Positions 1,340-18,318 of a DNA stretch of 64,000 nucleotides are shown piece by piece. Numbering within the stretch: the stretch's first letter is position 1; each line of letters begins with the position of its first letter. This stretch comes from a virus. The translations under genes were made by a program, and so were the position numbers. Below the pieces are notes generated by a model. It saw nothing but the letters and a program-made list of their open reading frames with translations. It was not told the origin of the DNA and did no database searches. The stretch is from positions 38,605 through 102,604 of the IMG/VR virus record IMGVR_UViG_3300031539_000008. The stretch is one strand, 5' to 3'.

Positions 1340-3775
1340 CTACGCCCTCATCATCCGCGATAGCCGCCGCCGCTCACCGGCGCGTCGATCATCGCGACGG
1401 GCACTCTTGCTGCTCCGGCGTTTGCGCGACACGAACCCACCGCCGGTCGCCAGGGCCATGTTGACCCGAGCAAACAGCCTGGTCCCCCAGGCGGAGGGGT
1501 TCTTGAGCCACCCCTCTCGTCGCGCGATAGCCTCTCGCTCCGCCTCGCCCGCCAGCTCGATGCCGCCGAATCCCATGACCGGCGGGGGCTCCGTCGGCGA
1601 GCGCGGCGACTCCTGCCACCGCGGCTTTCCCTCCCACCGCGTCGCGATGGCTTTGATTTGGGCCGCAGAGATGGGGACCCCGATGGCGTCAGCCACCATG
1701 TCGACCACCTTCTTGGTGATTTTCGTGGCGCCAGTTGCGTCCAGCGCATCCAGAAGCGTCCACTCGAAAGACCTGAGCGCGCTCTCGGCTATCCGATCGC
1801 TCACTCCCTCCATGGAGGCCGCCTCGGAGAGCGTGTAGCCGCCCAGGACGGCTTCCACGATTCGGAAGTCACGATGCTCCCGTTTGGCTCGGGCGCGCTC
1901 AGAGAGCACGTCTCGCCCCTTGGGCTCAGGTGGGACTGGCGGCCTACGCGCCATAATCCGCATCATCTCCTGGAACTCGCCCTTGCCGAGAGGCGTGTGC
2001 TTCCTCGGCTTCTTCAGCTTGGGTCGCTTGGCGTACCCAAAGGCTGGAGGAGGAGGGGCGACCGGAGCAAAGGTAGATGGCGGAGCCATCGCAGGAAACT
2101 TTCCACGCGGAAGCAAGCGCCTCCCTGGCTTGACGAGTTTCTCCTTGGGCCCACGGATCGGCTCGGTGACCCCCATGAGCTTGAGGGTCTCAGCCATCAG
2201 CTCCTCAGTGGGCTCCATGCCCTCCGCCGTGGCCAAGGTGCGCACCATCTTGCGGGTCCGCCGGTATTCCGCCAGCTCCGGATCCATTGGACCGCCCTTG
2301 CGCGCCTCGATCGCGTACCGAATCTCCTGGGGCATCCCGCGGCGCTTACGCGTGTACTTGCGCGTTCTCAGGATCCTGGGCGGCTCCGTCTCCCCGGCAG
2401 CGATGGCGGTGAAGACGGCGTCGCGTTCCTTGTCTGTGCCGAGGGCGGCAAACACTGCGTCATTGAAGCGGGCCTGAGCGAGAGCCGCAGCGCGCCCTTG
2501 CCGCTTGTCGATCCTTTGCTGGCGGAAACGTAGCTCGGACCAGAAATCGTGCACGTCGTGGGCCAGGAGGTCGGCCAGGAGCGCTGAGTCCATGGCCTGA
2601 CGCGATGCCTCGGTCCCGAGCAGCTCCCACAGCGCAGTACGCAGGCGCTGCTCGGACCAACTGGTCATCTTCCCGGGTTCGCGCCCCTCCTTCCGCATCT
2701 CCTCACGCAGCTCCATCACCTTCGCCATGAAGGCATCTGGATCACTGCGGAGTAGGTTTTTCAGGTGCTCGACCAGTTTCAGCTCGGCCGTGACTGCGGC
2801 ATCCGAATGAGACTTGCTGCTCGCCCCCGCCGCGTCCTTCACTCGGGTGATCTCTTCGGCGAGCGCCGCCTCGGACACCGTGCGTGAGGTCCCCGTTGGC
2901 AGCGCCGCCTGCATGGTGGCCAGGGTCACGAAGTCGGCGATCTGCTCGGCCTCGATGGGCGCCTGGTCGGCAGCCACCTTCTCGCCGTACTTCATCATCG
3001 CCTTGACACCGCCCTTGCGATAGTGACCGATGTACTCCTTGGGCTCCGCCCCACGCATCATTTGCATGGCGAATGAGGCTACGTCGTTCAGCTCCTTGAC
3101 GAGGTTGCGCCCGTCCAGCACTGGTAGGCGCCTGGTCCTGGTGAGTTCTCGCTCTCCTCGTGTCAGCTCCTGATGCAGCCTCTTGACCCTCTGGTCGTAG
3201 GGAGCGTCCATCCCAGGCGTAAGCAGCATCTTGGTAGCGGCGATGGCCCAGGTGAACTCGGCAGAATCCTTTGCCGCCTCGACGACCACCTTCTTCACCT
3301 CTTCGACGGTCTCTGGCTGTATCTCCTGCTGCTCGATACGCCTGGTGATCCGCTCCTCCATCGGCACCTTGAGCGGACCAGCGCGCTTGATGATCTTTGC
3401 GACGCCAACATGGGTGATCCCCACGATGCGCGCGATCTCGCGGTTGCTCATTCCTTCCGCGCTGAGCGCCAGGATCTTCTCTTGAGTCTCCCTGGGAGTC
3501 TCTCGTCCTTTCGTCGTTCCGCGTCCCTTTTTGGTCAGGAGTTTGCGAATCGTGTCCGGCTTGAGCCCGGTCGCCTTTGAGATTTCTCCGTGCTTCCGAC
3601 CATCATCGTGCATCTTGAGGATCAGCGCGGTTGTCCTCTCGTCCGGGTTGGCCATGGCCATGCTGGCCACTGCCGTGCTCAGCCCTAGCAGTTCCCCACG
3701 CGTCGGCGACCGCGCGGCGGACCAGTAGGTGGTGCGCGCGACTCGGCACTTCGATGGTTTCTTGGCCTTTGCCAC
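1340..3775 (-). CDS. Large basic protein with three HTH-like motifs and C-terminal tag-like helix
   Basis: GRKHGEISKATGLKPDTIRKLL; GMSNREIARIVGITHVGVAKII; GYTLSEAASMEGVSDRIA; ends RRRLSRMMRA. Confidence 0.8.
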   Translation of the reverse strand: MAKAKKPSKCRVARTTYWSAARSPTRGELLGLSTAVASMAMANPDERTTALILKMHDDGRKHGEISKATGLKPDTIRKLLTKKGRGTTKGRETPRETQEKILALSAEGMSNREIARIVGITHVGVAKIIKRAGPLKVPMEERITRRIEQQEIQPETVEEVKKVVVEAAKDSAEFTWAIAATKMLLTPGMDAPYDQRVKRLHQELTRGERELTRTRRLPVLDGRNLVKELNDVASFAMQMMRGAEPKEYIGHYRKGGVKAMMKYGEKVAADQAPIEAEQIADFVTLATMQAALPTGTSRTVSEAALAEEITRVKDAAGASSKSHSDAAVTAELKLVEHLKNLLRSDPDAFMAKVMELREEMRKEGREPGKMTSWSEQRLRTALWELLGTEASRQAMDSALLADLLAHDVHDFWSELRFRQQRIDKRQGRAAALAQARFNDAVFAALGTDKERDAVFTAIAAGETEPPRILRTRKYTRKRRGMPQEIRYAIEARKGGPMDPELAEYRRTRKMVRTLATAEGMEPTEELMAETLKLMGVTEPIRGPKEKLVKPGRRLLPRGKFPAMAPPSTFAPVAPPPPAFGYAKRPKLKKPRKHTPLGKGEFQEMMRIMARRPPVPPEPKGRDVLSERARAKREHRDFRIVEAVLGGYTLSEAASMEGVSDRIAESALRSFEWTLLDALDATGATKITKKVVDMVADAIGVPISAAQIKAIATRWEGKPRWQESPRSPTEPPPVMGFGGIELAGEAEREAIARREGWLKNPSAWGTRLFARVNMALATGGGFVSRKRRSSKSARRDDRRAGERRRLSRMMRA

Positions 3776-3800
3776 GGTTCAGTGTCGCATGCTCAGGCGG

Positions 3801-5342
3801 CTAGGTCCCCCGCATGGCCTTGCGGAGAATGTCCCTGGCCACGGGGTTCTTCTTGGCCTTCTTCTTGGCGGTTTTGACGCCCAGATACCCACCAGCGATG
3901 GCGCCGACAGGGCCGAGCAGGAGGGCACCGGCACCGCCGCCAATCGCCGCACGCTCTGCGCGCGATGGATTCTTCTTGGTCCGCTTCTTGGCCTTCTTCG
4001 CCGGCTTCTTCTTGGCTACGCCAGAGCGCCCCTTCGCCTTGCGCAGTGAGGCGCGGATCAGATCGACGGACTTCTTGCTCACTCCGCCGATGTCCCATTT
4101 CTTGTTCTGTTTGAGGTAGCGCTCGATGTCCGCCTTGGTGAGCGTCTCCGCGGTCTTGCCCCATTCATCTGGCGCGTAGACGATCCCCTTGAAGTCGGAC
4201 ACGAAGGCCAAGGTTCCGTCTGGAAACTGGACCCACCACTCGACGGTCAGCTTCTCGCCCACATCCTCCGGGCCAAGGGCCAGCGTTGGCTTGCCAAACG
4301 TCTTGACCAAATCTCCGTAGCTGGCGGTGATTTTACCCTTTTGACTGGTCCCATCCAGCAGCTCAAAGTCCACTTCGGACTCGGCGAGGGTGCGGTGGGG
4401 TCCGATTGGCGCAGCGGCACGCACAGGCGCAGCTTCAGCGCCCTTCAGCGCGACATAGGCCGAGGATGCGCGCGACTTCACCGAGGCCGCACGCGACTTC
4501 ACGGTGTCCCAGAACGATGGGTTGTCCAACGCCTTGCGGAACTCGGGATTCGTCTTGACCTGGCAGGCCTCGCACCCGCAGATCTCTGGGACCAGCGTGA
4601 ACTTGTCCGGGTTGGCCTGCGGACCGAAGCTGCCCTCGCCGCCGTAGTCCTTGACCAGAAACTTGCGCAGCATCGCGAGCGTGCGTCCGTGGCCGGCTCG
4701 CACCGACGGGACCCGCTCCAGGATCATCACGCTGCCCAAGCAGGATCGGTAGCCGTAGTGGTCCACACACTTGCGCAGGATCTTCTTCTGCGTGTCGCGC
4801 GGCTTGGAGAGAAATCCCTTGCCGCCGAGCTTGCCGGGTCGGGTGATAGCCTTGGCCATCCACTTCGCCTTGGGAGGCGTACCCTTGTTCAGTCGTGGGT
4901 TCGTCTTCATTTCCTTGTTGGCCCACTCAGTGGCCCGACGCACCGCATCGCTGATGGATTTGGCCTGGTGGGTCAGCTCGCGCTGCCTGGTACGGCCTTC
5001 GTCCTGGACGACGGAGTAGTAGTTGCCCGGAACGAACGGATCAAGGCCGACCGTGAGAAATAGAGCACCCTTGGTGAGTGCGGCGGTCTCGTTGACGTGG
5101 TCGATGGCCTCCAGCATCCAGCCGTTGACGGGATTCTTCACGGCCCCTCGTCTCGCCTTGCTCCTGGCGCCCGGCGGGTAGTAGGTCACCGGACCGACCC
5201 CCATCATGTGTCCGCCGATGCCTGACGTGGGCACCAGCTCCCCAAGCAAGTAGCTCTCGGGCACCGGGCCCGGCGGCATCCTCTTGATCTTGTGCCCCTT
5301 GGGCACCGATGACTTCCGTTTGGGAGGATTTTTCTTGGCCAT
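3801..5342 (-). CDS. Modular basic protein, 8 xNP motifs, C-terminal ILRKAMRGT tag
   Basis: 513 aa; modules separated by KKNP/VKNP/KTNP/QANP/LDNP; ends KKNPVARDILRKAMRGT. Confidence 0.85.
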   Translation of the reverse strand: MAKKNPPKRKSSVPKGHKIKRMPPGPVPESYLLGELVPTSGIGGHMMGVGPVTYYPPGARSKARRGAVKNPVNGWMLEAIDHVNETAALTKGALFLTVGLDPFVPGNYYSVVQDEGRTRQRELTHQAKSISDAVRRATEWANKEMKTNPRLNKGTPPKAKWMAKAITRPGKLGGKGFLSKPRDTQKKILRKCVDHYGYRSCLGSVMILERVPSVRAGHGRTLAMLRKFLVKDYGGEGSFGPQANPDKFTLVPEICGCEACQVKTNPEFRKALDNPSFWDTVKSRAASVKSRASSAYVALKGAEAAPVRAAAPIGPHRTLAESEVDFELLDGTSQKGKITASYGDLVKTFGKPTLALGPEDVGEKLTVEWWVQFPDGTLAFVSDFKGIVYAPDEWGKTAETLTKADIERYLKQNKKWDIGGVSKKSVDLIRASLRKAKGRSGVAKKKPAKKAKKRTKKNPSRAERAAIGGGAGALLLGPVGAIAGGYLGVKTAKKKAKKNPVARDILRKAMRGT

Positions 5343-5345
5343 GAC

Positions 5346-5624
5346 TCAGCGTCTTCCGCGACCCTTGAGCGTGAGCCCGATGGCACCACGGCCCACGATG
5401 GCGTTGTTTTCTTGTGGCCAGCGGCCGGCGATCGGACCGATAATTCCTGCGCGCTCTGGGTTGCCCATGCCACGCGGAAGGACCTGCGCGCTCATGTGGC
5501 GCCCATCGCCCTGGAGCGGTCCGTAGCTCTTGTTGGGCTTGTAGGTGGAAACCAGGACGCTGCGTCCGTCCAGTCCGCCGATGCCAGCTCCCAGATCTGT
5601 GTCGCTCATTGATGGGTTGTGCAT
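5346..5624 (-). CDS. Small protein with MxNPSMSDTDLGAGIGGL leader
   Basis: Start re-placed at ATG 5624 by identity with the start of 6277..6720. Confidence 0.75.
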   Translation of the reverse strand: MHNPSMSDTDLGAGIGGLDGRSVLVSTYKPNKSYGPLQGDGRHMSAQVLPRGMGNPERAGIIGPIAGRWPQENNAIVGRGAIGLTLKGRGRR

Positions 5625-5656
5625 GCCCTTGGTCTCTTTCTCTCGTGCAGACTGTC

Positions 5657-5908
5657 CTAGAATTTCGAGCAAAAGGGCGGCAGGTAGTCTCCGAGGTAGT
5701 GATTGCAACATTCGCAATTGAACTGGTTGCCCTGGTCGTCGACAGCGCACCGCTTGTAGTCTCCCTCTCCCGAACACGAGCGTGTGCTACCTGGGCTAGA
5801 GGTGATACGACCGCGACCACGCCGACGCGCGGGCTTCTGGTAGGCGGCACGGGTGGAGGCCGCAGATCCGCGTTTGCTTCTACTGGATGCCATGGATGGG
5901 TTGTTCAT
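5657..5908 (-). CDS. Basic leader plus 6-Cys peptide
   Basis: MNNPSMASSRSKRGSAASTRAAYQKPARRRGR followed by a Cys-rich tail ending LGDYLPPFCSKF. Confidence 0.75.
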   Translation of the reverse strand: MNNPSMASSRSKRGSAASTRAAYQKPARRRGRGRITSSPGSTRSCSGEGDYKRCAVDDQGNQFNCECCNHYLGDYLPPFCSKF

Positions 5909-6270
5909 CTTCGTTTCCTTTCAGTCCCTGACTCGGTTGCTAAGTGAAAGCCGCGATGGAGGGCCATCACCTGGACGACCCTCTCCACCCACCTCACATA
6001 TTCACGCACCAAGGAGGCAGGTATCCGCCCAACACGCGAGTGCAACACTGACCCTTGCCAGAATGCCAGTAGTAATCACTCCCGTGACTCTTCTTGCAGT
6101 CTGCGTCCTTGCCCAGATTCGATCCTCCAGGGACGCCGAGTGTCGCTCGTCCGCGCCTGCGCGCGGGCTTCTGGTAGGCGGCACGGGTGGAGGCCGCAGA
6201 TCCTCGTTTGCTTCTACTGGATGCCATGGATGGGTTGTTCATCTTCGTTTCCTTTCAGTTCCTGACTCGG
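5826..6270. repeat. 111-bp direct repeat (5826-5936 and 6160-6270)
   Basis: 2 mismatches; covers RBS region and leader codons of two adjacent peptide genes. Confidence 0.92.
5994..6242 (-). CDS. Basic leader plus 4-Cys peptide
   Basis: Same 32-aa leader as 5657..5908, different core ending LGGYLPPWCVNM. Confidence 0.75.
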   Translation of the reverse strand: MNNPSMASSRSKRGSAASTRAAYQKPARRRGRATLGVPGGSNLGKDADCKKSHGSDYYWHSGKGQCCTRVLGGYLPPWCVNM

Positions 6271-6276
6271 GTTTGG

Positions 6277-6720
6277 TTATCGGAACACGTTTTTCACTTT
6301 ACACATGCCCTTGCAGACCTTGAGCTTGTACTCAGCTCCGCCACCATGCTTGGAGATGCAGTCCGCCTCGCAGCGGTTGGATCCGCCGCCACGGGGAGAC
6401 ATGCCACCGCGAGCGCTGACGGCCTTCAGTGTCCCTCGCGTGCGACGACGCCCCATGCCCAACGTCTTGGGTGCCTGGGTCGAGACCGCGCCACGGTAGT
6501 AGTCGTCACCACGCTCTCCGTCGACCTGGAAGTGGTTGCCGAACACGCGGTTGGCGTAGGAATTGCCATCCGTATTCACCGTGGCTCGAAAGTGACCTGG
6601 CTGAACCTGCTGGAGGTCCACCGAGAACTCGCTTCCGAACACGCGTTGGGCGTAGGAAGGTGCGCCCAGTCCGCCGATGCCAGCTCCCAGATCTGTGTCG
6701 CTCATTGATGGGTTGCGCAT
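6277..6720 (-). CDS. Leader-bearing protein with C-terminal twin CX3C motif
   Basis: MRNPSMSDTDLGAGIGGLGA...CEADC...CKGMC. Confidence 0.75.
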   Translation of the reverse strand: MRNPSMSDTDLGAGIGGLGAPSYAQRVFGSEFSVDLQQVQPGHFRATVNTDGNSYANRVFGNHFQVDGERGDDYYRGAVSTQAPKTLGMGRRRTRGTLKAVSARGGMSPRGGGSNRCEADCISKHGGGAEYKLKVCKGMCKVKNVFR

Positions 6721-6738
6721 GTCCTTGCTCTCCTTCTC

Positions 6739-7032
6739 TCAGCGATTCGTATGGTACGCGAGCCTACAGACTCCCTGGCAGCAGACCCACAGGCCCTTGT
6801 GGTCAACCCTTGCCTTACAGCCGCGCGGGATCCTGGGTCGACTCGCTCGCTTGGTCGCTCCCACGCCACGGCGACATCCAGAGGACACCGGGGTTCCGAC
6901 GGGTAGCATGGTCTGCGCGGCGCATCCACCGATGCCGGGAAACCACAGCCCCATCATCGCTGGCTGTATGGCCGCTAGGTTCTCCAGCGCCATGGTCTCG
7001 CTGTCAGCTTCGGCTCTGCACGGGTTGAACAT
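6739..7032 (-). CDS. Cys-rich basic protein with RGVGA motif
   Basis: MFNP start; RRGVGATKR; CKARVDHKGLWVCCQGVC. Confidence 0.65.
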   Translation of the reverse strand: MFNPCRAEADSETMALENLAAIQPAMMGLWFPGIGGCAAQTMLPVGTPVSSGCRRGVGATKRASRPRIPRGCKARVDHKGLWVCCQGVCRLAYHTNR

Positions 7033-7463
7033 CAGACGATCCGCACGATGGTTGCGCCGCGCACGGTCGGCACCTCGGTCGGGACAACTTGATTCTGGTC
7101 GGAGATGTCGACCTGGACCGCGCCAGGCGCAGCGGCCTCCAGGATGAAGCGATGGATGTACGGCGCGCCCGGCATGGCCTCCTCGGGCTCCTCGACCTCC
7201 TCGGTGACGATCAGCGTGGGGTCACCCTCGACGGCTTCCGTGAAGATCGTCCACTCGTAGGCCGTGCCGCTGGCATGAGGCAGCTCGATGGTCAGCACGT
7301 CTCCGAGGTTCAGCTCAACCTCGGTGGGCAGCTCGGACAGCTCGGTGATGAGTACCTGCTCCGGAGGCTGCCCGCCGTTTCCGTCCTTGACTTTGTCGCC
7401 CTTGCTCTTGGCGAGCAGAATGACGGCTCCGACGATGAGAACTGGTACAAGTGGAAATGGCAT
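7032..7463 (-). CDS. Membrane-anchored chagasin-like (I42) cysteine-protease inhibitor domain
   Basis: N-terminal TM; LNLGDVLTIELPHASGTAYEW and MPGAPYIHRFILEAAAPG resemble chagasin NPTTGYxW and GAGG-xF-A-PG loops (degenerate). Confidence 0.6.
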   Translation of the reverse strand: MPFPLVPVLIVGAVILLAKSKGDKVKDGNGGQPPEQVLITELSELPTEVELNLGDVLTIELPHASGTAYEWTIFTEAVEGDPTLIVTEEVEEPEEAMPGAPYIHRFILEAAAPGAVQVDISDQNQVVPTEVPTVRGATIVRIV

Positions 7464-7479
7464 CTGTGTCCTCGGTCTT

Positions 7480-7854
7480 TCACCCGCAGATCGGGTACCA
7501 GCTCGTGCCGCTTTGATGAGCGACGAGCGCGTAGTTTGCTTTGACTTCCAGGACCGTCCCTGGGTAGCTCAGTCCGCCGCAGAAGATCGTTCCGTTGGTG
7601 ATGTCGACGCAGCAGCTCGCGTAGGAGCCGTAGTGTCGGGGGTAGTAGCCGGCCCACCACGCCCACCAGTTGCCCCACCATCCGCTGCCCCCGCTGCCCC
7701 CGCTGCCACCTCGGCCGCGCCAAGGGTGGCCTGGGCGCCAACCTCCGCCGCCGCCGCCACCACCTCGACCTCGGCGGGCACGTCCTGCACGTCCTCCGCC
7801 GCGCTGTCCTACGCCGCGACGACTTCGATGAATGGTGAGTTTGACTTCTCCCAC
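7480..7854 (-). CDS. Gly/Arg/Trp-rich protein with Cys-containing C-terminal domain
   Basis: KLTIHRSRRGVGQ; GWWGNWWAWW; 4 Cys. Confidence 0.65.
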   Translation of the reverse strand: MGEVKLTIHRSRRGVGQRGGGRAGRARRGRGGGGGGGGWRPGHPWRGRGGSGGSGGSGWWGNWWAWWAGYYPRHYGSYASCCVDITNGTIFCGGLSYPGTVLEVKANYALVAHQSGTSWYPICG

Positions 7855-7859
7855 GTGAG

Positions 7860-8183
7860 CTACCTGTCGTAGATCGAGCGAAATTGGTCTCTGACCAACT
7901 GATTGACGAGCTGCTTCTTGGTCACGCGACCGTACCGCTTGAGCACAGGCTTTTTTTTTGCCTTCTTGCGGCGGCGCTTGGGGTTGTGTGACTCGATGGT
8001 GGCCAGCTTCTTGTAGTAGGCCTTGTCTTCGGTCAGGTGATCCATGGCGATCTCGACGGCCACCATGAAGTCGCTGGTGTGCTCCGTCTCAACCAGCGCT
8101 CCGCGAGCGAGTTCCACGGCGTTGAAGTCAGAGGGGGACTTCCCCACTGACAGACCGCCGGGTATGCGCTCGCGCCACGTCAC
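7860..8183 (-). CDS. DUF5661-like protein with basic tail
   Basis: ELARGALVETEHT...AVEIAMDHLTEDKAYYKKL then HNPKRRRKK; GTG start overlapping the upstream stop. Confidence 0.7.
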   Translation of the reverse strand: MTWRERIPGGLSVGKSPSDFNAVELARGALVETEHTSDFMVAVEIAMDHLTEDKAYYKKLATIESHNPKRRRKKAKKKPVLKRYGRVTKKQLVNQLVRDQFRSIYDR

Positions 8184-8863
8184 GGAATCCGTAGCTTTCG
8201 CTTCCTCTTCGGAGTCTTCTTCTTCGCCACCTTCTTCTTGGCCTTCTTCTTGGCCTTCTTCTTTTTTCCTCCGCGTGGAACCTGTGTCCACTCGCCGGAT
8301 GCACGCATCTCCACGTCCGATGGAGCGTACCGCTCGGTCCACTCGCCAGAGGAGATCATTTCGCGTGACTTCTTGTGCGCCGCCTTGTAGCCGGCGTCTG
8401 GATTGCTGGCCGTGCCAGAGAGCAGGACCGACTCGGTATGCGGGTCGATCAGGCCCCACTGGATCTGACTCTTGGCGCCGGGGTTGGGCACCCAGACATA
8501 TGCCAGCTCGGACGGGTTCTTGGTGAACCGCGTGAGACTGCCAGGCGTGCCCATCACGATCCCCTTCCAGTAACCGAGCAACGCATGCGAGCGCTTGTCT
8601 CCCATGCCCTTGGGCCCACAGCTCATGCGTGGGCTGGCCGCGTATCCGCGAGCCATCGCGGCGTTGGCCCCGGCCGAGCACGAGGTCAGATCGTACTTGC
8701 TGGCCCCCATTTTTCCCTTCGCGCTCCGGCTGCGAATCGGGACGTAGTAGGCACCGCGCGCCTCGCTCCAGCGGATGCGCGCCTGTCCTCCGGCGACGCC
8801 GCGGCCCTCCTTGCGAACTGCGGCAAGCGCCTTGGCGAAACTGACTTTCTGCTTTTTGGCCAT
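8180..8863 (-). CDS. Basic protein with xNP motifs and Lys-rich tail
   Basis: TKNP, VPNP, ASNP; KKKKAKKKAKKKVAKKK. Confidence 0.8.
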   Translation of the reverse strand: MAKKQKVSFAKALAAVRKEGRGVAGGQARIRWSEARGAYYVPIRSRSAKGKMGASKYDLTSCSAGANAAMARGYAASPRMSCGPKGMGDKRSHALLGYWKGIVMGTPGSLTRFTKNPSELAYVWVPNPGAKSQIQWGLIDPHTESVLLSGTASNPDAGYKAAHKKSREMISSGEWTERYAPSDVEMRASGEWTQVPRGGKKKKAKKKAKKKVAKKKTPKRKRKLRIP

Positions 8864-8871
8864 GACTGATC

Positions 8872-10236
8872 CTAGATCTTGCTGAACTTGCGCAGAATCG
8901 TCGCCTTCTCACGGGCACTCATCTGCTTGTTCGCCTTGGGTCCACTCGGCTTGACCGAGCGGGGGGTTTTGGCCGCGACAGCGCGAGCCTTGCGCGACTT
9001 CTTGCTCTTGAACTGCGCAAACAGCCCCTCGTGTCCCCGAATAGGCTCCAGGGGGTTGAGCTGTAGGTAACCACGCGAGGAGAGCTGCATGCGGCGACCC
9101 GAGGCCGTTGCGCCACGTCCCGCGCCGGAGCCTGGACCGTCGCCGGAGAACCGGCTCATGTTGCGACCGGCCACAGAGAGGCGATGAATCGCCTGCTCCA
9201 CCGTCATCTGCGGAGGCACGCCGGCGAACCCTGGGCGCGGCACGTTGCTCGGCCACGGCGCGACGCGCGTGGGCGCTCGCTTGGCCACCTTGCGCTTCGT
9301 GGCCTTGCGCTTGGCGACCTTCCGCTTTCCGGTCGTCTTCCGCTTTCCGGTCGTCTTCCGCTTGGCCACCTTCTTCTTGGCGGTCTTGCGCTTGGCGACC
9401 TTCTTCTTCGTGGCCTTCTTCTTCGTGGCCTTCTTCTTGGCTGGCTTGCGCTTGGCTGTGCTCAGCTTCTTGGAGCACAACTCCAGCCGCATGGAGCAGC
9501 CTTTCAGGGAGTCCTTGAGAGCCTCCTCCTGCTTCTTGGTCAGGTCTCCCCGATGCTTGGCCTTTTTCAGGCGCGTCTCCAGGGACTTGATGTGTGCCTT
9601 GAGCGAGGCGATTTCCTTGCTGTCCTTGCGCTTGGCGGCGGCGATGCGCTTGGTCTCCTGGCGTGCCGCATCGAATCCCTCCATCAGGTCGGACACCACG
9701 TCGGCTGAAACCATTTCTTCGGTCAACTTGGCCAGCGCAGCCTTGCCCTTGGTGATTTTGGCAATCTTGGCCTTGGACGGAATCGAACCCTGGGCCATTC
9801 CCCATTGTTTCTTCGTCAGACCGTGCTTGCGTACCTTGCTTGGCGTACCAGACGGGCTGGCGGGGCCGGCGGCAATCCCGACAGCTTTCTTCTTCTTCGA
9901 CCGCTTCTTCGTGGCCTTCTTCTTGGCCGGCTTGCTCTTGGTCGCTTTCTTCTTCGCAGTTTTCGCCACCTTTTTCTTGGCCACCTTTTTCTTGGCCTTT
10001 TTCTTGGCTGGCTTTTTCTTCGCCACCTTCTTCTTCTTGGTCGCCTTCTTCTTGGTCGCCTTCTTCTTGGTCGCCTTCTTCTTGGTCGCCTTCTTCTTGG
10101 TCGCCTTCTTCTTGGTCGCCTTCTTCTTCTTGGCGGCGTTGCGCTTTGGCGACTTGCGCTTCGCGGCACGCTTCTTCGCCTTCTTGGCGCGCTTCTTCTT
10201 TCGAGGATTGACGACGTTGACGGTGTAGGTGGCCAT
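8872..10236 (-). CDS. Histone H1/Hc2-like Lys-Ala-rich DNA-condensing protein
   Basis: (KKATK)n pentapeptide repeats (15-bp tandem near 10031-10125), central coiled coil, ends ATILRKFSKI. Confidence 0.85.
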   Translation of the reverse strand: MATYTVNVVNPRKKKRAKKAKKRAAKRKSPKRNAAKKKKATKKKATKKKATKKKATKKKATKKKATKKKKVAKKKPAKKKAKKKVAKKKVAKTAKKKATKSKPAKKKATKKRSKKKKAVGIAAGPASPSGTPSKVRKHGLTKKQWGMAQGSIPSKAKIAKITKGKAALAKLTEEMVSADVVSDLMEGFDAARQETKRIAAAKRKDSKEIASLKAHIKSLETRLKKAKHRGDLTKKQEEALKDSLKGCSMRLELCSKKLSTAKRKPAKKKATKKKATKKKVAKRKTAKKKVAKRKTTGKRKTTGKRKVAKRKATKRKVAKRAPTRVAPWPSNVPRPGFAGVPPQMTVEQAIHRLSVAGRNMSRFSGDGPGSGAGRGATASGRRMQLSSRGYLQLNPLEPIRGHEGLFAQFKSKKSRKARAVAAKTPRSVKPSGPKANKQMSAREKATILRKFSKI

Positions 10237-10287
10237 GGTGGTGTTCTCCTGAGTTTGGACGCCCTTCGCGGGCAGGCGAGGTGGGCG

Positions 10288-10407
10288 TCAGCGCCCTCGC
10301 GGAAGTTTCGTGATGCTGAGAGTACCTGCTAACAGGGAAAACGAAAAGAGAACCAACCCGACGTGCACGGCAGCGGTGGCAAGAGTGGGTTTCTTCGGTC
10401 CGTTCAT
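10288..10407 (-). CDS. Micro membrane protein (39 aa)
   Basis: Hand-translated MNGPKKPTLATAAVHVGLVLFSFSLLAGTLSITKLPRGR; ATGA overlap. Confidence 0.55.
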   Translation of the reverse strand: MNGPKKPTLATAAVHVGLVLFSFSLLAGTLSITKLPRGR

Positions 10408-10577
10408 CGCCCCTTGCCGAAGTAGAACGCGGTGCCGACGAGTGCAAGCATCGCGGCCCACAACGGGACCTTCCTGCCGTTCTCATCGTCGCCGGCACCC
10501 ACGCCACGGCGTCCGCGAGTACGGACGATACGACGAGGGAGACGCGGACGACGTGTCTTGTACTTGGGTCGTCTCAT
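10404..10577 (-). CDS. Basic leader, RGVGA, C-terminal TM (57 aa)
   Basis: MRRPKYKTRR...RGRRGVGAGDDENGRKVPLWAAMLALVGTAFYFGKGR. Confidence 0.7.
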   Translation of the reverse strand: MRRPKYKTRRPRLPRRIVRTRGRRGVGAGDDENGRKVPLWAAMLALVGTAFYFGKGR

Positions 10578-10741
10578 TTTACCGCCTTGATGATGCCGTA
10601 GGATGCGAGTCCTCCGAGGATCAGTGCGGCCCACACGGGTACGCACAGATCGGTGGTGTCACCGTTGGCCCCCATGCCGCGACGACCGCGAGACCTCGCC
10701 TTCTTCTTGCGCTTGTTGGTACGTGGACTGAACTTCGCCAT
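10574..10741 (-). CDS. Basic leader, RGMGA, C-terminal TM (55 aa); paralog of previous
   Basis: MAKFSPRTNKRKKKARSRGRRGMGANGDTTDLCVPVWAALILGGLASYGIIKAVK. Confidence 0.7.
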   Translation of the reverse strand: MAKFSPRTNKRKKKARSRGRRGMGANGDTTDLCVPVWAALILGGLASYGIIKAVK

Positions 10742-10752
10742 CTTCTTCTCCT

Positions 10753-11454
10753 TCAGATCCTCATCAGTCTGCGCAGCGTTTTCCGCTGCTCGGGTTTCAG
10801 CTTTTTCTTCGGCATGCGTATTCCGCCGCCGACCGATTCGCCCGCGCGTTGGGCGAGCCAGTTGCAAAGGCCGCCGGGGGATTCGACATCTGGACGTGCC
10901 TCCATGATGGCGAGACAGGCGCTCATACTGCCGCCTGGAATGTCGACAGGATTCCCCTCGTAGGGTCCGACGCCGTATCTGGCGGTAATCTTCTGAGCCA
11001 CACGAAGCAGGCTCCGAGCTTCCGTGACTCCGTTTTGTCCAAGTTTGCGGGCTGGCCCAGGGTCGTCTCCAGAGTGTTCCGCTTCGCCCACGGCCACCGC
11101 TGCGTATTTGATGGTGTCCAGGGCTCCGTTGAAAGCCACTGTGAAATCTTCCACCCGCTGAGCCTTCTCGAAAGCCTTGGCGGCGAGACGCATCGCCTTG
11201 CGGTACCGATCCGCGTGTTCACTGCGTCCTGGGTTGGCTAGCTGCGGATCGAACCCGTACCTCCGCATGATCGAGAGGTTGTTCTTCACCGCCCGCCAGT
11301 CGCTCGGCGTCTGCGACATGAACACCGAGCCCTTCCCGCCCGGGGACGATAGCTTCCAATGACCAGCCTTGCGCAGCGTGGCTGTCCATCCCTGCGCCTT
11401 GGCCTGCTCGATCACCTCGCGCATGCGCCTGGAAAGGTCTGACTTGCGGGACAT
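10753..11454 (-). CDS. Modular protein: HicA-like N-terminal domain, NP-delimited modules, C-terminal tag
   Basis: QGWTATLRKAGHWKLSSPGG...TPSDWRAVKN...RRYGF; LANP, EGNP; ends KTLRRLMRI. Confidence 0.75.
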   Translation of the reverse strand: MSRKSDLSRRMREVIEQAKAQGWTATLRKAGHWKLSSPGGKGSVFMSQTPSDWRAVKNNLSIMRRYGFDPQLANPGRSEHADRYRKAMRLAAKAFEKAQRVEDFTVAFNGALDTIKYAAVAVGEAEHSGDDPGPARKLGQNGVTEARSLLRVAQKITARYGVGPYEGNPVDIPGGSMSACLAIMEARPDVESPGGLCNWLAQRAGESVGGGIRMPKKKLKPEQRKTLRRLMRI

Positions 11455-11462
11455 GGATGGGG

Positions 11463-11798
11463 CTACCGAGCGAAGACCTCGGCGCGTGTGTGAAGTCGGC
11501 CTTCATCGAACTCGATGTGGTCGCGTTCAACCTGATCTACCAACTCGGCCGGGCAATACCTGCGGAACGGAAGCATCTCCCGTGCCGCGTGCTCTGCGAC
11601 GAGGTCTGGCGGAAAGCCAAGGTTCCGCAGCATCCGATGCTCACGGCGCAACTTGTGTTGTTGAGCGTTGGGCAGATACGGAAACAGCGAATCCTCCTCA
11701 AATGCGAAGTGGCATTCCAAACAGCACGCCACATCCATGCGGCAACTATTCATCTTGTCTTTGCAGGCTCCGCAACATGGTGGCTTGACTGGCATCAC
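11463..11798 (-). CDS. Hemerythrin/HHE-like small protein
   Basis: HFAFEEDSLFPYL, LRREH, HAARE pattern. Confidence 0.55.
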   Translation of the reverse strand: MMPVKPPCCGACKDKMNSCRMDVACCLECHFAFEEDSLFPYLPNAQQHKLRREHRMLRNLGFPPDLVAEHAAREMLPFRRYCPAELVDQVERDHIEFDEGRLHTRAEVFAR

Positions 11799-12523
11799 GT
11801 ACCTCTCATGGCCTTCTCCAGGATACCCCTGGTTTTCTTGCTACTCGTGCGATTCTTCCTGGATTTCGTCCTCTTCTTCGTCGGGTTCGGGATGAGACCC
11901 TCTGCCGCCAGTGAGGTAAAGTTACGTGGAGAGACCACCACGTGATCCAACACCGGGATTCCAGTCATCCTGCCGACCTTGACCATGCGTTGTGTCAGAT
12001 CGATGTCAGCCTCGCTTGGCGAGGAGTCGCCAGTGGGATGGTTGTGTGCGATGACCACGCTGTGAGCCTGCCGACGGATCGCCTCCCGAAACAACTCTCT
12101 GGGGTGCACCTCCACCGCCGACAGGCTGCCAATGGCGATTCCGAGCACGTCGATCACTTGCTGGCGTGCGTCGAGCAACACGACGACGAAATACTCCTGC
12201 GGCTTCTTGCCGATGACCCTACGCACGAGTTCTGCTACCTCGGATGGCTGCCTGACAGTCCCCGCGCGGTCCTGACAGGCCGCGTCACACAAGCCAGCAA
12301 CCGCAAATACAGCAATCACCTTCTTGGCCTGGGCAGTGGGAACCCCAAGATGGGTGAGCGCACTCATGCTCGCGTCGGAGAGTCCACGCCCGTCGGGGAA
12401 GTTCTCGGCCAGGATGGCTGCGCTTTTCTTGGTCAGCCCCAACTCACGCAGGCGGTCCACGAGCTTGCCTCGCTCCCGAATCTCCAGGAGTAGATCGTTG
12501 TGTATCGGTCGACCTCTCGGCAT
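11795..12523 (-). CDS. radC: RadC/JAB-domain protein with basic tail and C-terminal tag
   Basis: QEYFVVVLLD, VHPRELFREAI, AHNHPTGDSSPSEAD, LDHVVV; tail PNPTKKR...GILEKAMRGT. Confidence 0.9.
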   Translation of the reverse strand: MPRGRPIHNDLLLEIRERGKLVDRLRELGLTKKSAAILAENFPDGRGLSDASMSALTHLGVPTAQAKKVIAVFAVAGLCDAACQDRAGTVRQPSEVAELVRRVIGKKPQEYFVVVLLDARQQVIDVLGIAIGSLSAVEVHPRELFREAIRRQAHSVVIAHNHPTGDSSPSEADIDLTQRMVKVGRMTGIPVLDHVVVSPRNFTSLAAEGLIPNPTKKRTKSRKNRTSSKKTRGILEKAMRGT

Positions 12524-12936
12524 CAGGTTCCTCGCATCGCTTTACGCAGGATCGCGCGGGCGTCTGGATTATTCTTCGCATTTTTCTTGGCGGTCTTTTT
12601 GGCCTTACTGGGCTCTTGGGCGATACGCCCTTCCGCCAGCTCGATCATGCTATCCTTCTCACCGGCCCGCTCATCCAGACGATCCTGGTCGCGCGCGGCC
12701 GTGTACGCCTGGATGTAGAAGCTGTACTCGACCTTGTAGATGTGGCCGTTGACCTTCGTGTAGAGGCCGGGGATGACTCGGTCGTTCAGGCTGTCCCACA
12801 GCTCATGCCACTGGTAGTCGTCTGGGCCGTAGTCTGGCAGCGCCTGCTGTTGCTTGCGGGGGTCTGGGATTCTGGCGCTGCGTCGGTCGAACGACGACAT
12901 CTCCCGATACGGCGATGTGACAACCGGAGCCATCAC
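12523..12936 (-). CDS. Hypothetical protein with C-terminal tag
   Basis: Ends KKNAKNNPDARAILRKAMRGT. Confidence 0.8.
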   Translation of the reverse strand: MMAPVVTSPYREMSSFDRRSARIPDPRKQQQALPDYGPDDYQWHELWDSLNDRVIPGLYTKVNGHIYKVEYSFYIQAYTAARDQDRLDERAGEKDSMIELAEGRIAQEPSKAKKTAKKNAKNNPDARAILRKAMRGT

Positions 12937-13727
12937 GTCCCTCGCATCGCCTTGCGCAAGATCGTCTTGGCGTCGGGGTTCTTCTTGGCCACCTTCTTCT
13001 TCGCCTTCTTCTTCGCTTCTTTCCTCGCTGGCTTCCCCCAGTTGAGTTCATCCACCAGCGAGATGGCCTTGTCGAAAGCGTCGGCACCACGAAAAGTCTC
13101 GTAGATCTTCGTCTTGTCGCGCACCGCGTATACGCCATGCGGGAGCACGTCAATCCGTACCATCGGGGATGCAGCCTTGGCCCTGGGGTTCTTCACCCTC
13201 TTCTTGGCGCGCTTGCGCGAGGCTTTGCTCGCGGGGTTGCTGCGCAGTTTCAGCATGTCCTCCACCTCGGAGGATATGGAGCTGGCGCCGTCCATGATGG
13301 AGTAATCGTCGGCGTGGTGTCCCTCGTTCCAAGCGGCGTGCGCATCTTCCAGGGCTAGGATGGCCAGGACTTTGCGATGTGACCCGTCTGTGGTTTCACG
13401 GGCCTTTTCAAGCGTCTTTTCAGCTTGCTTGAGGTGAGCCTTCGCCAGCCTGGCATGGGTCTTCTTGGCGGGGTTCGATGTCTTTTTGCGCGGGTTCTCG
13501 TACCCCTCGCCCTCCACGCCCCCGGCCTCGCCCCACCCAGACTCGCCGCCCGGCCACTCGTCCGAGAGCTTGGCCCCGAGCCTGGATGCCTTGCGGTCGC
13601 CGCCCTTGGGCTCGAATCCTCCACCCCGTCGCCACTCCCAGTACGCCTCCAGGTGTTCGCCGGCGGCGTGGTAGTCCTTGCGCTTGAGGGCGCTGGTGGC
13701 CATGTCGAGTGCTGCCTGCGGGTCCAT
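12933..13727 (-). CDS. Modular basic protein, 5 xNP motifs, C-terminal tag
   Basis: Start MDPQAAL (TGATG overlap); ends KKNPDAKTILRKAMRGT. Confidence 0.8.
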   Translation of the reverse strand: MDPQAALDMATSALKRKDYHAAGEHLEAYWEWRRGGGFEPKGGDRKASRLGAKLSDEWPGGESGWGEAGGVEGEGYENPRKKTSNPAKKTHARLAKAHLKQAEKTLEKARETTDGSHRKVLAILALEDAHAAWNEGHHADDYSIMDGASSISSEVEDMLKLRSNPASKASRKRAKKRVKNPRAKAASPMVRIDVLPHGVYAVRDKTKIYETFRGADAFDKAISLVDELNWGKPARKEAKKKAKKKVAKKNPDAKTILRKAMRGT

Positions 13728-14287
13728 CAGTACACCAGTCCTCTCTCCGTCACGGTTAGCCGACCGCCGCTGATGGCGATGGCCTTGGGCGGGCTTCCAG
13801 GCGACATCGCGATGCGCACGTTCTTGCCCAGGGTGTGGATGTAGTCGTCCGTCATTCCGTCCGACTTCCATTTGGAGCTGCGGTACACGATGTGAACCGC
13901 GCGACCGTACGGCTTGAGCTGGTAGTCTTGGAGCTTGAGTTCGCCCATCTGCACGGGGTCACGCGCCGCCCATCGACGAAATAGCTTGGCCGACTTCTCC
14001 GCGCCGGCCGCCTTGAACAGCTCCTGGTCCGGACCGAGATGGCCGACCCATCGCACGTGCTTCCCAGGGAAGATCAGCAACGTCTTCAGCGTCGGGCTCC
14101 AATAGAGGTTGGGGCCCTCCCCCGTGAACTTGTGGACCTCTTCCTGCCCGTCGCTGTCGCGCTCGACCTTGATCTCCAGGGCAGTGCCAAGCAGTGCCAC
14201 GTCGCCTGGATTCGGCAGGCGTGACGGCTTAGGGCCGGGGTTCCCCGCAAGTAGCAGGCACGGTAGGCAGGGGTTTTGGCGTGGCAT
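13727..14287 (-). CDS. Putative virion protein with three N-terminal xNP motifs
   Basis: RQNP, AGNP, LPNP then a globular domain (YRSSKW...YIH...GGRLTVTERGL). Confidence 0.75.
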   Translation of the reverse strand: MPRQNPCLPCLLLAGNPGPKPSRLPNPGDVALLGTALEIKVERDSDGQEEVHKFTGEGPNLYWSPTLKTLLIFPGKHVRWVGHLGPDQELFKAAGAEKSAKLFRRWAARDPVQMGELKLQDYQLKPYGRAVHIVYRSSKWKSDGMTDDYIHTLGKNVRIAMSPGSPPKAIAISGGRLTVTERGLVY

Positions 14288-14496
14288 CTTCGTTTCTCAG
14301 CGTCGTCGGGATCCCTTTTTCGGCCGCGACCGCGGCCCACCGGAATACCGTCAGCCAATCCCCGGGCCGCATGACGCGTCCCCCACTCCCCTGAAGTCGT
14401 GGAAGGACTGTGGTGCGATTTGTGGTGCGATTTGTAGCGTGGAGACGGTCGCCGCGTTGGCGCGGTCCACATCGGCTTTGCTTGGTTGAGTAGCCA

Positions 14497-15060
14497 TCAG
14501 GGGCGGCTTGTATCCTCATATTGTACGGGGAGCTGCGGGTCGCCGGAGCCAGGACCTGGCCCGGTGTGCTTCGTGCACACCCAGATGCCTTTGACGTACG
14601 CGAACTGCTCGCAGTCACCTGCGTCTATAGGCGTTGATCTTCCGGCTGATAGGGAACGCGAACGAGAGCGCGAACGAGAGCGCCGACGCCCAACCCCGAT
14701 CCTTGGGCCCGGTGCTGTTGGTCCATGGGGGAACAGGCATCCGGTAATCATGGACCCTTGGCACTCAGCCAAATCGTGAGCACTCAGCTTGCTCGCCATC
14801 CACTGTTTCTTACACCAGGCTAGACCACTGGAGATGCACTTGCCGCGGGGGCGGCTAGGCGTGGATCCTCCGCGTGAGCCCGCCCTCCCCTTGCCCCGAG
14901 CGCCGACTCCACGGTGCAGAGTCATCTTGACCGGTGCCCCCATGCCTCGCGGCACGATCGGGATGCGGACGTGTCCATCTTGGATGTGAGAACGAGCCGC
15001 GTCGGTGTCCCATGCTCCGAGGCCGACTTGACGCTGATACAGAGTGGGGTTGTTGGCCAT
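14497..15060 (-). CDS. Basic Cys-containing protein with several G[LMV]GA motifs
   Basis: MANNP; GLGA, GMGA, GVGA; RS repeat; KGIWVC. Confidence 0.7.
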   Translation of the reverse strand: MANNPTLYQRQVGLGAWDTDAARSHIQDGHVRIPIVPRGMGAPVKMTLHRGVGARGKGRAGSRGGSTPSRPRGKCISSGLAWCKKQWMASKLSAHDLAECQGSMITGCLFPHGPTAPGPRIGVGRRRSRSRSRSRSLSAGRSTPIDAGDCEQFAYVKGIWVCTKHTGPGPGSGDPQLPVQYEDTSRP

Positions 15061-15061
15061 C

Positions 15062-15493
15062 TCAGTACCTCCCCGTCGCCCGGTACTGACGCTTGGCGGT
15101 CAGACTGATGGGCCGGCGGTTCTTCCCACCTAGCCGGCGGGTGCCGGCTCCCTTGAAGGTGAGAGACATGCCAGATGCAGGCTCGTACCACCCGCCCCGG
15201 CTCGCGCCCAGGCCCTCGGGTTCGTCCGTGTACTGGTTGTTGTTGGCGTCCACGCCGCCGTCGTCTGGATAGCCAACGGTGTCGTTGTAGTCATCCATGC
15301 CGCCAGATGGCTGGCCATCCGGAGCGCAGTCCACGTCTGGCTGATGCGGGTAGGGCGTCTTCCCGCAGTGGCAGTAGTGGTGGTGGTGGTGGTGAACATC
15401 CTGGTGTTCATGCTGCGGCGCACAGCCGGTGTGGCAGCCAGCCACCCCTTGCTGTTTCCCTCGCTGCTTTCGATAGCTTCGTCGTTGAGCCAT
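15062..15493 (-). CDS. His/Cys-rich protein
   Basis: HEHQDVHHHHHHYCHC; EGLGAS. Confidence 0.65.
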   Translation of the reverse strand: MAQRRSYRKQRGKQQGVAGCHTGCAPQHEHQDVHHHHHHYCHCGKTPYPHQPDVDCAPDGQPSGGMDDYNDTVGYPDDGGVDANNNQYTDEPEGLGASRGGWYEPASGMSLTFKGAGTRRLGGKNRRPISLTAKRQYRATGRY

Positions 15494-15498
15494 TTTTC

Positions 15499-16272
15499 TT
15501 ACCTCCGTTGTTTTCCGCGCAAAGTCAGGCCGCGCTTACCGATTCCGCCCTGGTCGCATCCCGCATCGATCCAGTAGGGCATGCTCCTGGTGGGGCATCC
15601 AGCAAATGGCTCGGCGTAGAACTGCGCGCTCTGCCCGATCCAGTACGGCTGTTGCCCGATAGGATAGGGCACCCGTCGCTGTCGCCTTTTTCGTCCTCGA
15701 CGAAATCCATAATACAGGCCGACCGGATTGGTGGTGGGTGCGCAGCCGATGTCCCCGGGATTTGGCCCGATGTACGGGTTGCATGCCGCGCCATACCCTG
15801 GTCCTGGAGGCACCGGTGGCCGAAGAGGCCGGCGACGCGCGGGAATGGGAGTGGCAGCGGGCGGTGCAGCGGAGGTCTGTCCGACGCCAGGGCTCGTGCA
15901 GTCGCCTGTGCAGTCGCCTCCGCACTCACACTCGTGTCCAGATGCGCAGGACTCACAGCAGTACCCTTCCCACCATGGCTGGTGATGGTCCACCGCAGGG
16001 GGGCAGTCTGAGTGACCGCCGCATGGCCGCTCAGGCAGACAGATGGGAAGCGCGCCGCGAATCGAGTAGGGCGTGTAGATTCCACTCTCCATCGCCAAAT
16101 AGCTGCGCTGGAGACCCGGATGCTGGACAGGCTGGCAACCGGGCCGATACGCCGGATAGGCGGGCATTTCGGTATCTCCGCTCCAGGTCCCGTGAGGCGC
16201 GCCCATTCCGCGGCGGTAGGTCAGGGGGATTCTGCGCATCGTCTTGTTCTTCCACTTGTCTCCACAGGGCAT
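15499..16272 (-). CDS. Cys/Pro-rich protein
   Basis: RRGMGAP; CCESCASGHECECGGDC; ends LTLRGKQRR. Confidence 0.7.
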   Translation of the reverse strand: MPCGDKWKNKTMRRIPLTYRRGMGAPHGTWSGDTEMPAYPAYRPGCQPVQHPGLQRSYLAMESGIYTPYSIRGALPICLPERPCGGHSDCPPAVDHHQPWWEGYCCESCASGHECECGGDCTGDCTSPGVGQTSAAPPAATPIPARRRPLRPPVPPGPGYGAACNPYIGPNPGDIGCAPTTNPVGLYYGFRRGRKRRQRRVPYPIGQQPYWIGQSAQFYAEPFAGCPTRSMPYWIDAGCDQGGIGKRGLTLRGKQRR

Positions 16273-16276
16273 TTTT

Positions 16277-16615: not shown

Positions 16616-16657
16616 GGGAACTCCTGGTCCCGATGCTACCGCGGCGGAGCTGTACCC

Positions 16658-17614: not shown

Positions 17615-17615
17615 T

Positions 17616-18317: not shown

Positions 18318-18318
18318 G

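Follow-up and report, generated by a model that had tools for sequence, protein, structure and literature searches.

Clan CE cysteine proteases process the core precursors of adenovirus (pVII, pX/mu), African swine fever virus (ASFV; pp220/pp62) and poxviruses at Gly-Gly-X or Ala-Gly-X sites. The T-even phages carry a diverse set of internal proteins, which have only a capsid-targeting sequence in common (PMC3012670), and in prochlorosin-type systems one conserved leader serves many cores (PMC10783134). Shared leaders in front of different bodies are also the hallmark of the locus described here, a compact array of small minus-strand genes (A2-B2-B1-A1, with gene C directly before them) in the genome of a virus. 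The 64,000-nt window that we analysed comprises bases 38605-102604 of a linear IMG/VR virus record of 102,604 nt (GC 62%), which CheckV rates as ~71% complete. The contig has phage-type genes for a tyrosine integrase, Dam, DnaB, RecE/RecT-like proteins, RNase H, RadC-JAB, an M15 peptidase and a superoxide dismutase. It belongs to an uncultured, high-GC virus with bacterial-type gene organisation and phage-type replication genes.

We propose that gene C and the A2-B2-B1-A1 genes together represent a modular, lineage-specific pro-protein gene that has been fragmented and expanded. In related uncultured viruses the gene specifies a single protein of 285-500 aa and has the matching location, directly before the homologue of a 513-aa gene. 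The modules of the family are beta-hairpin repeats, Arg-rich linkers, varied Cys-rich mini-domains and a conserved tail, with G-[I/V/M]-G between them. In this virus the modules form separate co-transcribed cistrons, each with a Shine-Dalgarno sequence and a copy of the family-type leader, which was either kept or regained. The descriptive core of the proposal, a split modular family with gene conversion at the 5′ ends, is in our judgement likely to be right. The features concerned are the following (all on the minus strand).

6739..7032, minus strand: gene C, 97 aa; M-F-N-P-C start; modules ending G-I-G-G and G-V-G-A; Arg-rich linker; Cys-rich end
6277..6720, minus strand: gene A2, 147 aa; 19-aa A leader ending G-I-G-G-L; two S-Y-A-x-R-V-F-G beta-hairpin modules
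6660..6740, minus strand: A-type repeat copy 2; 20 nt with the ribosome-binding site (RBS) and codons 1-19 of A2
6520..6658, minus strand: A2 internal duplication, a 43-nt repeat (79%) yielding the two S-Y-A-x-R-V-F-G modules
5994..6242, minus strand: gene B2, 82 aa; M-N-N-P-S-M start; Arg/Ser-rich 32-aa leader; 4-Cys core at residues 34-82, ending C-C-x3-L-G-x-Y-L-P-P-x-C
6148..6270, minus strand: B-type repeat, second copy; RBS within 28 nt, then codons 1-31 of B2
5657..5908, minus strand: gene B1, 83 aa; leader as in B2; 6-Cys core at residues 34-83
5814..5936, minus strand: B-type repeat copy 1, found by repeat comparison
5346..5624, minus strand: gene A1, 92 aa; ATG at 5624; A leader, short unique stretch, G-M-G-N-P, tail module of the G-P-I-A-G-R-W-P type
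5564..5644, minus strand: A-type repeat copy 1, found by repeat comparison
3801..5342, minus strand: the 513-aa gene; Asn-Pro at domain junctions, a transmembrane segment, Lys-rich tracts and a C-terminal L-R-x-A-M-R-G-T tag

Two pairs of direct repeats underlie the array. The copies of the first (D1, 5814-5936 and 6148-6270) are 123 nt long and 95% identical; four of the six mismatches fall in the last 12 nt, which leaves a single synonymous difference in the inner 100 nt. The second (D2, 5564-5644 and 6660-6740) has a length of 81 nt and 93% identity, with six differing positions and an identical inner 50 nt. A sequence-only reading of this DNA had reported repeats of 111 and 75 bp; both are real, and slightly longer than it stated. 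Its A-B-B-A order was borne out, all copies being direct, and so was its description of the repeats as RBS-plus-leader cassettes. Each consists of 20-28 untranslated nt, including the AGGA/GGAG-type Shine-Dalgarno sequence that lies 7-9 nt before each of the four open reading frames (ORFs), and of the first 19 (A) or ~31 (B) codons. The shared leaders comprise 32 residues in B1/B2 and 18 of the first 19 residues in A1/A2. The length and identity of the repeats exclude a chance origin in 4.5 kb.

That the repeats arose as artefacts of metagenomic assembly is extremely improbable. The source is indeed a metagenome assembly, and the three contigs from which the array proteins are recorded in JGI/IMG and ENA may be one assembly. 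Trivial duplication during assembly is, however, disfavoured because the copies show a few mismatches (six positions in each pair) and have unique flanks. Moreover, the repeats are shorter than usual read pairs, and a repeated leader within one locus or protein was seen independently in P0030, a homologous protein described below, and in other samples.

Neither a promoter-like nor a terminator-like site was found on the coding strand within the array, and the idea of an internal promoter or terminator was rejected on these grounds. An RNA element was rejected as well, since the leader RNA had no match among the Rfam families and its predicted structure did not exceed that of shuffled sequences (z +1.7 and 0.0). 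With no internal promoter, terminator or RNA element, the repeats are read as protein-coding 5′ cassettes within one operon. The genes are separated by spacers of 34, 85 and 32 nt; 3 nt divide the A1 stop from the beginning of the 513-aa gene, and the ATG of gene C overlaps the stop of a chagasin-like gene. The GC content at third codon positions (GC3) is 0.64-0.72 in the four ORFs versus 0.48-0.61 in most overlapping frames. At the ends of C, A2, B2 and B1 an Arg-rich linker leads into a Cys-rich core and then the stop; A1 is the exception. In A2 the repeat modules are followed by a G-M-G motif, the Arg-rich linker and, at residues 116-147, an end of the form C-x3-C-x13-C-x3-C.

The history of the B pair can be read from its codons. 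Beyond the leader, B1 and B2 have in common the C-terminal pattern C-C-x3-L-G-x-Y-L-P-P-x-C. The near-identity of the two genes ends at about codon 28; the next five codons encode R-R-R-G-R in both, and all five differ synonymously. The shared C-terminal pattern is also encoded by different codons. When only aligned positions with an identical residue were counted, the codons differed at 2 of 26 positions in the leader versus 11 of 18 downstream (Fisher p 2e-4). Smith-Waterman comparison of the two cores scored 63; shuffled sequences averaged 24, and 0 of 2000 attained the real score. Low codon divergence in the leader, high divergence downstream and homologous cores show that B1 and B2 are old full-length paralogues with purifying selection on the Cys framework, whose 5′ ends were homogenised recently by gene conversion or unequal recombination. 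Recent duplication of a whole B gene with fast divergence of the core is ruled out by the break in codon differences and by the homology of the cores. Recruitment of a new core is ruled out as well: the cores are homologous and the synonymous sites saturated. The sequence-only reading had assumed a recent leader duplication recruiting new mini-domains; the 5′ cassettes are much younger, as it supposed, but the cores of the B genes are old homologues rather than new acquisitions.

In a word-indexed search of 5.8 billion proteins, B1 was the only homologue of B2. A likeness of the B cores to P0024 and to L013:24-485 (L-P-[PS]-W-C, Y-W...C-C) is not significant (p 0.08-0.2) and not claimed, nor is one of the B leader to the basic linkers of P0021 (E 0.05-0.1). 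The AlphaFold2 model of B1, built together with B2, contains a hairpin of moderate confidence (residues 50-69) only. Both B proteins have a Cys at position -4 from the end (C-S-K-F, 5657-5668; C-V-N-M, 5994-6005), which is formally CaaX-like; these are probably merely the last conserved Cys of the core.

In the A pair identity stops one codon past G-I-G-G and nothing can be aligned beyond. The codons at identical residues differ at 1 of 16 positions in the leader versus 13 of 20 downstream. The sequence-only reading had taken the two A bodies to be unrelated, and this was not upheld: judged by their homologues, the A2 body is the S-Y-A-x-R-x-F-G repeat module and the A1 body the conserved C-terminal tail module of one ancestral multi-module protein (A1 tail, E 3e-14 to P0022). 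The simplest history would be tandem duplication of a leader-to-tail gene with complementary loss of modules; alternatively, the RBS and leader may have been transplanted in front of a tail module, and the data do not separate the two. The duplication inside A2 is ancient, because both copies are conserved in homologues.

Relatives of the array were difficult to find. Pfam and PHROG searches with the four genes and six neighbours matched only a chagasin-like domain and helix-turn-helix domains, all in the neighbours. In the word-indexed search of the 5.8 billion proteins B1 and A2 retrieved only themselves. IMG/VR pattern scans with B1, A2, the 513-aa neighbour and the chagasin-like gene did not reveal relatives, and the A2-family alignment had no match in 185,579 GTDB species genomes, nor in IMG/VR beyond this record. 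The ESM Atlas yielded no usable matches; its own models had a predicted local distance difference test score (pLDDT) of 0.30 for B1 and 0.60 for A2. Neither Pfam nor PHROG annotates the protein family, and to date only metagenomes have yielded it. Two approaches were productive: an exhaustive HMMER search with A2 and scans with an alignment (A4) of homologues of the 513-aa protein, whose gene, downstream of the array, is a conserved syntenic anchor by which related loci can be located.

The scans with A4 identified 4 loci in IMG/VR and 40 in metagenomes. Among the relatives of the 513-aa protein, P0007 shares 56% identity with it. In three of these, L014, L015 and L016, the gene order (g8180-like, DUF5661-like, a 159-aa gene, one long gene, 513-like, g1340-like) is that of the window. 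Where the window has C, A2, B2, B1 and A1, these loci have one continuous ORF of 285-311 aa (L014:3859-4737, L015:1285-2220, L016:857-1714). It starts with M-H-N-[P/L]-S and strings together short modules with G-I-G-G, G-V-G-G or G-V-G-A at their ends. L014 and L016 each have two copies of a 20-aa unit ending in G-V-G-G; L015 has one copy and also carries a 49-aa Cys-rich insert. The unit resembles a multi-copy peptide precursor. A profile of the three long ORFs matched gene C over modules 1-2 (E 5e-7), and its module 3 matched both internal repeats of A2 (E 1e-4). Gene C is also homologous to P0027 and P0030.

HMMER with A2 found 19 proteins of 80-1292 aa, ten of them at E<=1e-10; Pfam gave none but chance or FN3-like matches in these 19 homologues. 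The most informative is P0022 (310 aa), a single chain that runs from a same-type leader through the A2 repeat module, an Arg-rich linker and Cys-rich modules to the tail. A2 aligns to its residues 1-128, leader included (E 4e-28), and the A1 tail is 67% identical to its residues 255-287. As the order in P0022 is leader, repeat, Cys modules, tail, the A2-B2-B1-A1 order of the window reproduces that of the fused protein. Tails of the A1 type are also present at the C-termini of P0025, P0027 and P0028. The Cys module of A2 matches P0023 (E 2e-6), and the C-x3-C...C-x3-C spacing recurs in modules of P0022, P0023, P0025, P0026 and P0030. The closest relative, P0021, is 77% identical over the A2 body and has the leader, an unrelated 250-aa region and then the A2-type module. 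P0030 carries the leader twice, at the N-terminus and internally, the internal copy standing just after G-I-G and before an A2-type module. The number and content of modules vary among relatives, and the leader heads different bodies in different relatives. Comparison across relatives, the check that had been suggested with the sequence-only reading, revealed a highly plastic locus, not an invariant one.

The A2 repeat module weakly resembles the last strands of tandem FN3-like domains in P0035, a 423-aa protein (E 3e-6, four stretches). Each FN3-like domain of P0035 contains N-P-S-M; the likeness may be a hint to the origin of the A2 module, or convergence. Low-GC contigs with the core domain of the 513-aa protein (58% identity over 74 aa) were also encountered: L008 (IMGVR_UViG_GVMAG-M-3300017991-11_000001), L009, L010 and L023, one of which is labelled as a giant-virus metagenome-assembled genome (MAG) and one of which is 140 kb long. 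The only genome match to the domain was a Bacteroidota MAG contig. The L-R-x-A-M-R-G-T tag, which in the window follows a Lys-rich tract (3801-3830), is conserved at the ends of A4 homologues. Because it is kept in homologues that come from other samples and have different middles, the tag is a signal of the whole clade rather than a peculiarity of this contig.

Since relatives carry a single ORF, the array might be a decaying remnant, that is, a polyprotein gene broken by stops and insertions, with non-functional small ORFs and starts that are frozen duplicates. The low GC3 of the B genes and the lack of relatives for the B cores fit such decay. We nevertheless consider it quite unlikely: each piece has a Shine-Dalgarno sequence, an ATG and the family-typical M-x-N-P-S start, there are no frameshifts, and the five genes lie close together, with 3-85 nt between them. 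In the B proteins the Cys residues and L-G-x-Y-L-P-P-x-C persist although synonymous change is saturated, a sign of purifying selection, and the A1 tail retains its 67% identity to distant relatives. As to the direction of the change, L014 and L015 have an in-frame internal ATG after a GGAGG formed by the G-I-G-G codons, and the last seven bases of these codons match the surroundings of the RBS in the B genes exactly. The likeness is short, and its bearing on fission or fusion is only suggestive.

Across the family the N-terminus reads M-x-N-P-[S/T/C], and 8-35 residues further on comes G-[I/V/M]-G-[A/G]. In 27 proteins (the family and the window module) G-[IVML]-G was observed 91 times, versus 25 expected from composition, mostly after R/K and before A/G; the extended form G-[IVML]-G-[A/G/R/Q/K] is enriched 3.6-fold and is found at module borders. 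At least seven window genes have the motif 12-38 residues from the N-terminus: C, A1, A2, 7480, 14497, 15499 and 16277. The small ORF 14297-14497 has an in-frame TGA, a stop in standard translation. Two further proteins of the module are Cys-rich, one encoded at 11454-11795 (8 Cys in 114 aa) and one at 15499-16272 (16 Cys in 257 aa); the latter has R-G-M-G-A 22 residues from its start. Twelve window genes begin with M-x(0-3)-N-P, ten of them within 1340-16615; ~1 would be expected by chance among ~150 genes.

3661, 5342, 5624, 5908, 6242, 6720, 7032, 14287, 15060, 16615, 26973, 27844: starts of the M-x(0-3)-N-P type

Asn-Pro is itself frequent. The 20 genes of the minus-strand module at 1340-18368 have 37 Asn-Pro versus 7.2 expected, one third of the Asn residues preceding Pro, and in the A4 alignment several Asn-Pro columns at domain junctions are invariant.

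Could the 5′ cassettes be kept mainly as DNA linkers, at which recombination swaps, duplicates or deletes Cys-rich cassettes as in phage mosaicism, without a shared role at the protein level? The identity does extend into the untranslated RBS sequence, its boundaries are sharp, the direct repeats (334 and 1096 nt apart within the pairs) suit unequal recombination, and module content varies across relatives. However, distant relatives preserve the leader at the protein level despite different codons and lengths, and it always ends at G-[IVM]-G; moreover, DNA and protein roles can coexist. The chance that linkers are the whole explanation is therefore slight.

The AlphaFold2 model of A2, built on a 15-sequence alignment, has two helix-plus-hairpin units at residues 20-88 (pLDDT 77-89), whereas leader, linker and Cys end are disordered, with pLDDT below 50 in the Cys module. 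Foldseek with this model found no match in the PDB or BFVD at E<=0.001. Neither leader contains a hydrophobic run, and the models show the leaders as disordered; because a hydrophobic core (h-region) is lacking in both, Sec, Tat and lipoprotein signals were rejected.

With the modular pro-protein as our preferred interpretation, the leader would be a pro-sequence or a sorting/targeting tag, and G-[I/V/M]-G the site where a virus-specified protease would trim it and also separate the modules. The pieces would take a common route, giving small cationic peptides with disulfide or metal staples; the shared leader probably routes small basic Cys-rich products into one processing pathway. Their likeliest destination would be inside the virion and associated with DNA, like that of the T4 internal proteins or of the adenovirus core precursors. 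This destination is our preferred guess. It is offered because very basic proteins prevail in the surrounding module (Lys-rich tails; at 8872-10236 a 454-aa H1-like protein) and because of the analogy with the T-even internal proteins; it stays a guess because no capsid, portal or terminase gene was recognised. The processing-and-packaging step is tentative and less likely than not, and for the whole statement, from the split family and 5′ conversion to processing and packaging, we rate the chances as about even.

Several observations weigh against it. Cleavage at G-[IVM]-G is deduced from the motif. Pfam and PHROG sweeps across the whole 102-kb contig, itself ~71% complete, did not reveal a prohead, clan-CE, C39 or other obvious maturation protease, nor was a capsid, portal or terminase recognised. 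B1 and B2 have a GC3 of 0.64-0.67, under the 0.75-0.85 usual in this genome; their leader has only R-G-R-G/A in place of a clean G-[IVM]-G, and their cores have no significant relatives outside the contig. Their link to the family rests on position, the M-N-N-P-S start and the architecture. Finally, the change may have been fission here or fusion elsewhere; most relatives are fused, and leader-like sequence occurs within a fused protein (P0030).

Candidates for the protease were considered. The sweep of the contig found none of Peptidase_C5, C57, C63 and C48; the only peptidase-like matches were M15 (endolysin) and RadC-JAB, the latter encoded at 11795-12523. The DUF5661-like neighbour was rejected because the H-E-x-x-H of its relatives is not kept in the window copy: 7860-8174 has V-E-T-E-H where L014:3056-3370 has H-E-L-E-H, so that a metalloprotease role is doubtful. 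The conserved domain of the 513-aa protein was rejected as a Cys protease, having no invariant His and no PDB relative. For g17616 no PDB relative was found either. All PHROG matches to 'tail protein' or 'tail fiber' came from a collagen-repeat protein (21218-22177) and are not evidence of a tail; no tail gene was otherwise recognised in the 102 kb.

The genes might alternatively encode precursors resembling bacteriocins or RiPPs (peptides made ribosomally, then modified post-translationally), with a double-glycine-type leader cut by a C39 peptidase/ATP-binding cassette (ABC) exporter, possibly the host's, and cores secreted to act as antimicrobials or signals. The A leader (17-19 aa) has G-G at its end, the cores evolve fast and are Cys-rich and cationic, and conservation drops sharply between leader and core. 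The tandem 20-aa units of the relatives, ending in G-V-G-G, look like multi-core precursors, and the prochlorosins provide a precedent for one conserved leader with many cores (PMC10783134). Yet LanM, radical SAM, YcaO, C39 and ABC exporter proteins were all absent from the sweeps of the incomplete contig, and the leaders matched no Pfam leader family at E<=0.1. The A leader has a hydrophobic residue at -3 and, of the positions -4/-7/-12 that double-glycine leaders need, Leu at -7 only; the B leader lacks G-G altogether. Moreover, the motif recurs inside proteins of 300-500 aa and in many other proteins of the module. Such a role is unlikely on this evidence. The precursor-peptide or toxin role put forward in the sequence-only reading is in the same position, as neither a maturase, nor a peptidase-exporter, nor a known leader family was found on the 102-kb contig. 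Its interpretation as a whole is partly supported: leader re-use is real, while new mini-domains and the precursor or toxin role are not supported as stated.

A wider claim would be that this viral clade has a maturation system new to phages, in which M-x-N-P-S-tagged pro-proteins are cut at G-[I/V/M]-G, and perhaps at Asn-Pro (such junctions are ~5-fold enriched), releasing diversifying cationic Cys-stapled mini-proteins into the particle or the host. We regard it as improbable, slightly more so than the processing-and-packaging step. If true, it would be a bacterial-virus counterpart of the Gly-Gly-X core processing of adenovirus, ASFV and poxviruses, and gene fission with leader re-use would be one route to new members. 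The virus would diversify a set of small cargo proteins by splitting the pro-protein into cistrons, while recombination keeps the leaders identical. G-[IVM]-G, Asn-Pro and the M-x-N-P-S start of at least ten genes offer a testable handle on an otherwise unreadable 100-kb virus. Even if processing is wrong, the locus is a clean natural case of old paralogues that underwent 5′ gene conversion, and of viral gene fission and fusion.

Among the described systems the T4 internal proteins IPI, IPII and IPIII and the ORFs of the polymorphic IP locus are like the array in being neighbouring small genes with fast-evolving, often basic bodies and one short N-terminal sequence. In T4 the tag routes the proteins together and is removed by the maturation protease (PMC3012670). 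The T4 tag is ~10 aa long and is cut at L/I-x-E by gp21, whereas the leader of the array has M-x-N-P-S...G-[IVM]-G, and no gp21-like protease, scaffold or capsid gene was recognised on the contig. Furthermore, the cargo modules of the array are also fused in one long protein in relatives.

The prochlorosin and Nif11 class II lanthipeptide precursors likewise combine a near-identical leader, ending in Gly-Gly, with hypervariable Cys-rich cores. The array differs from them in having no Nif11/NHLP match and no ProcM/LanM or C39-ABC exporter on the contig; in addition, its motif also punctuates long multi-domain proteins, and the element is viral.

Likeness to the adenovirus, ASFV and poxvirus systems would lie in precursors punctuated by glycine motifs, in N-terminal propeptides that are removed and in small, very basic, DNA-associated core peptides. 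Those are viruses of eukaryotes, and their sites have the hydrophobic residue at P4, whereas here it stands between two glycines.

Helical hairpins with twin C-x3-C are known from the small Tim proteins and from the plant alpha-hairpinin peptides, which are released from multi-modular precursors. The spacing at the A2 end and the repetition of cassettes in longer precursors recall these, at the level of pattern only, the fold not being confident (pLDDT below 50); the B cores differ in having another Cys pattern. A shared leader with variable cargo is known from T4 internal proteins and RiPP precursors, and here it is combined with a different leader and a different punctuation motif.

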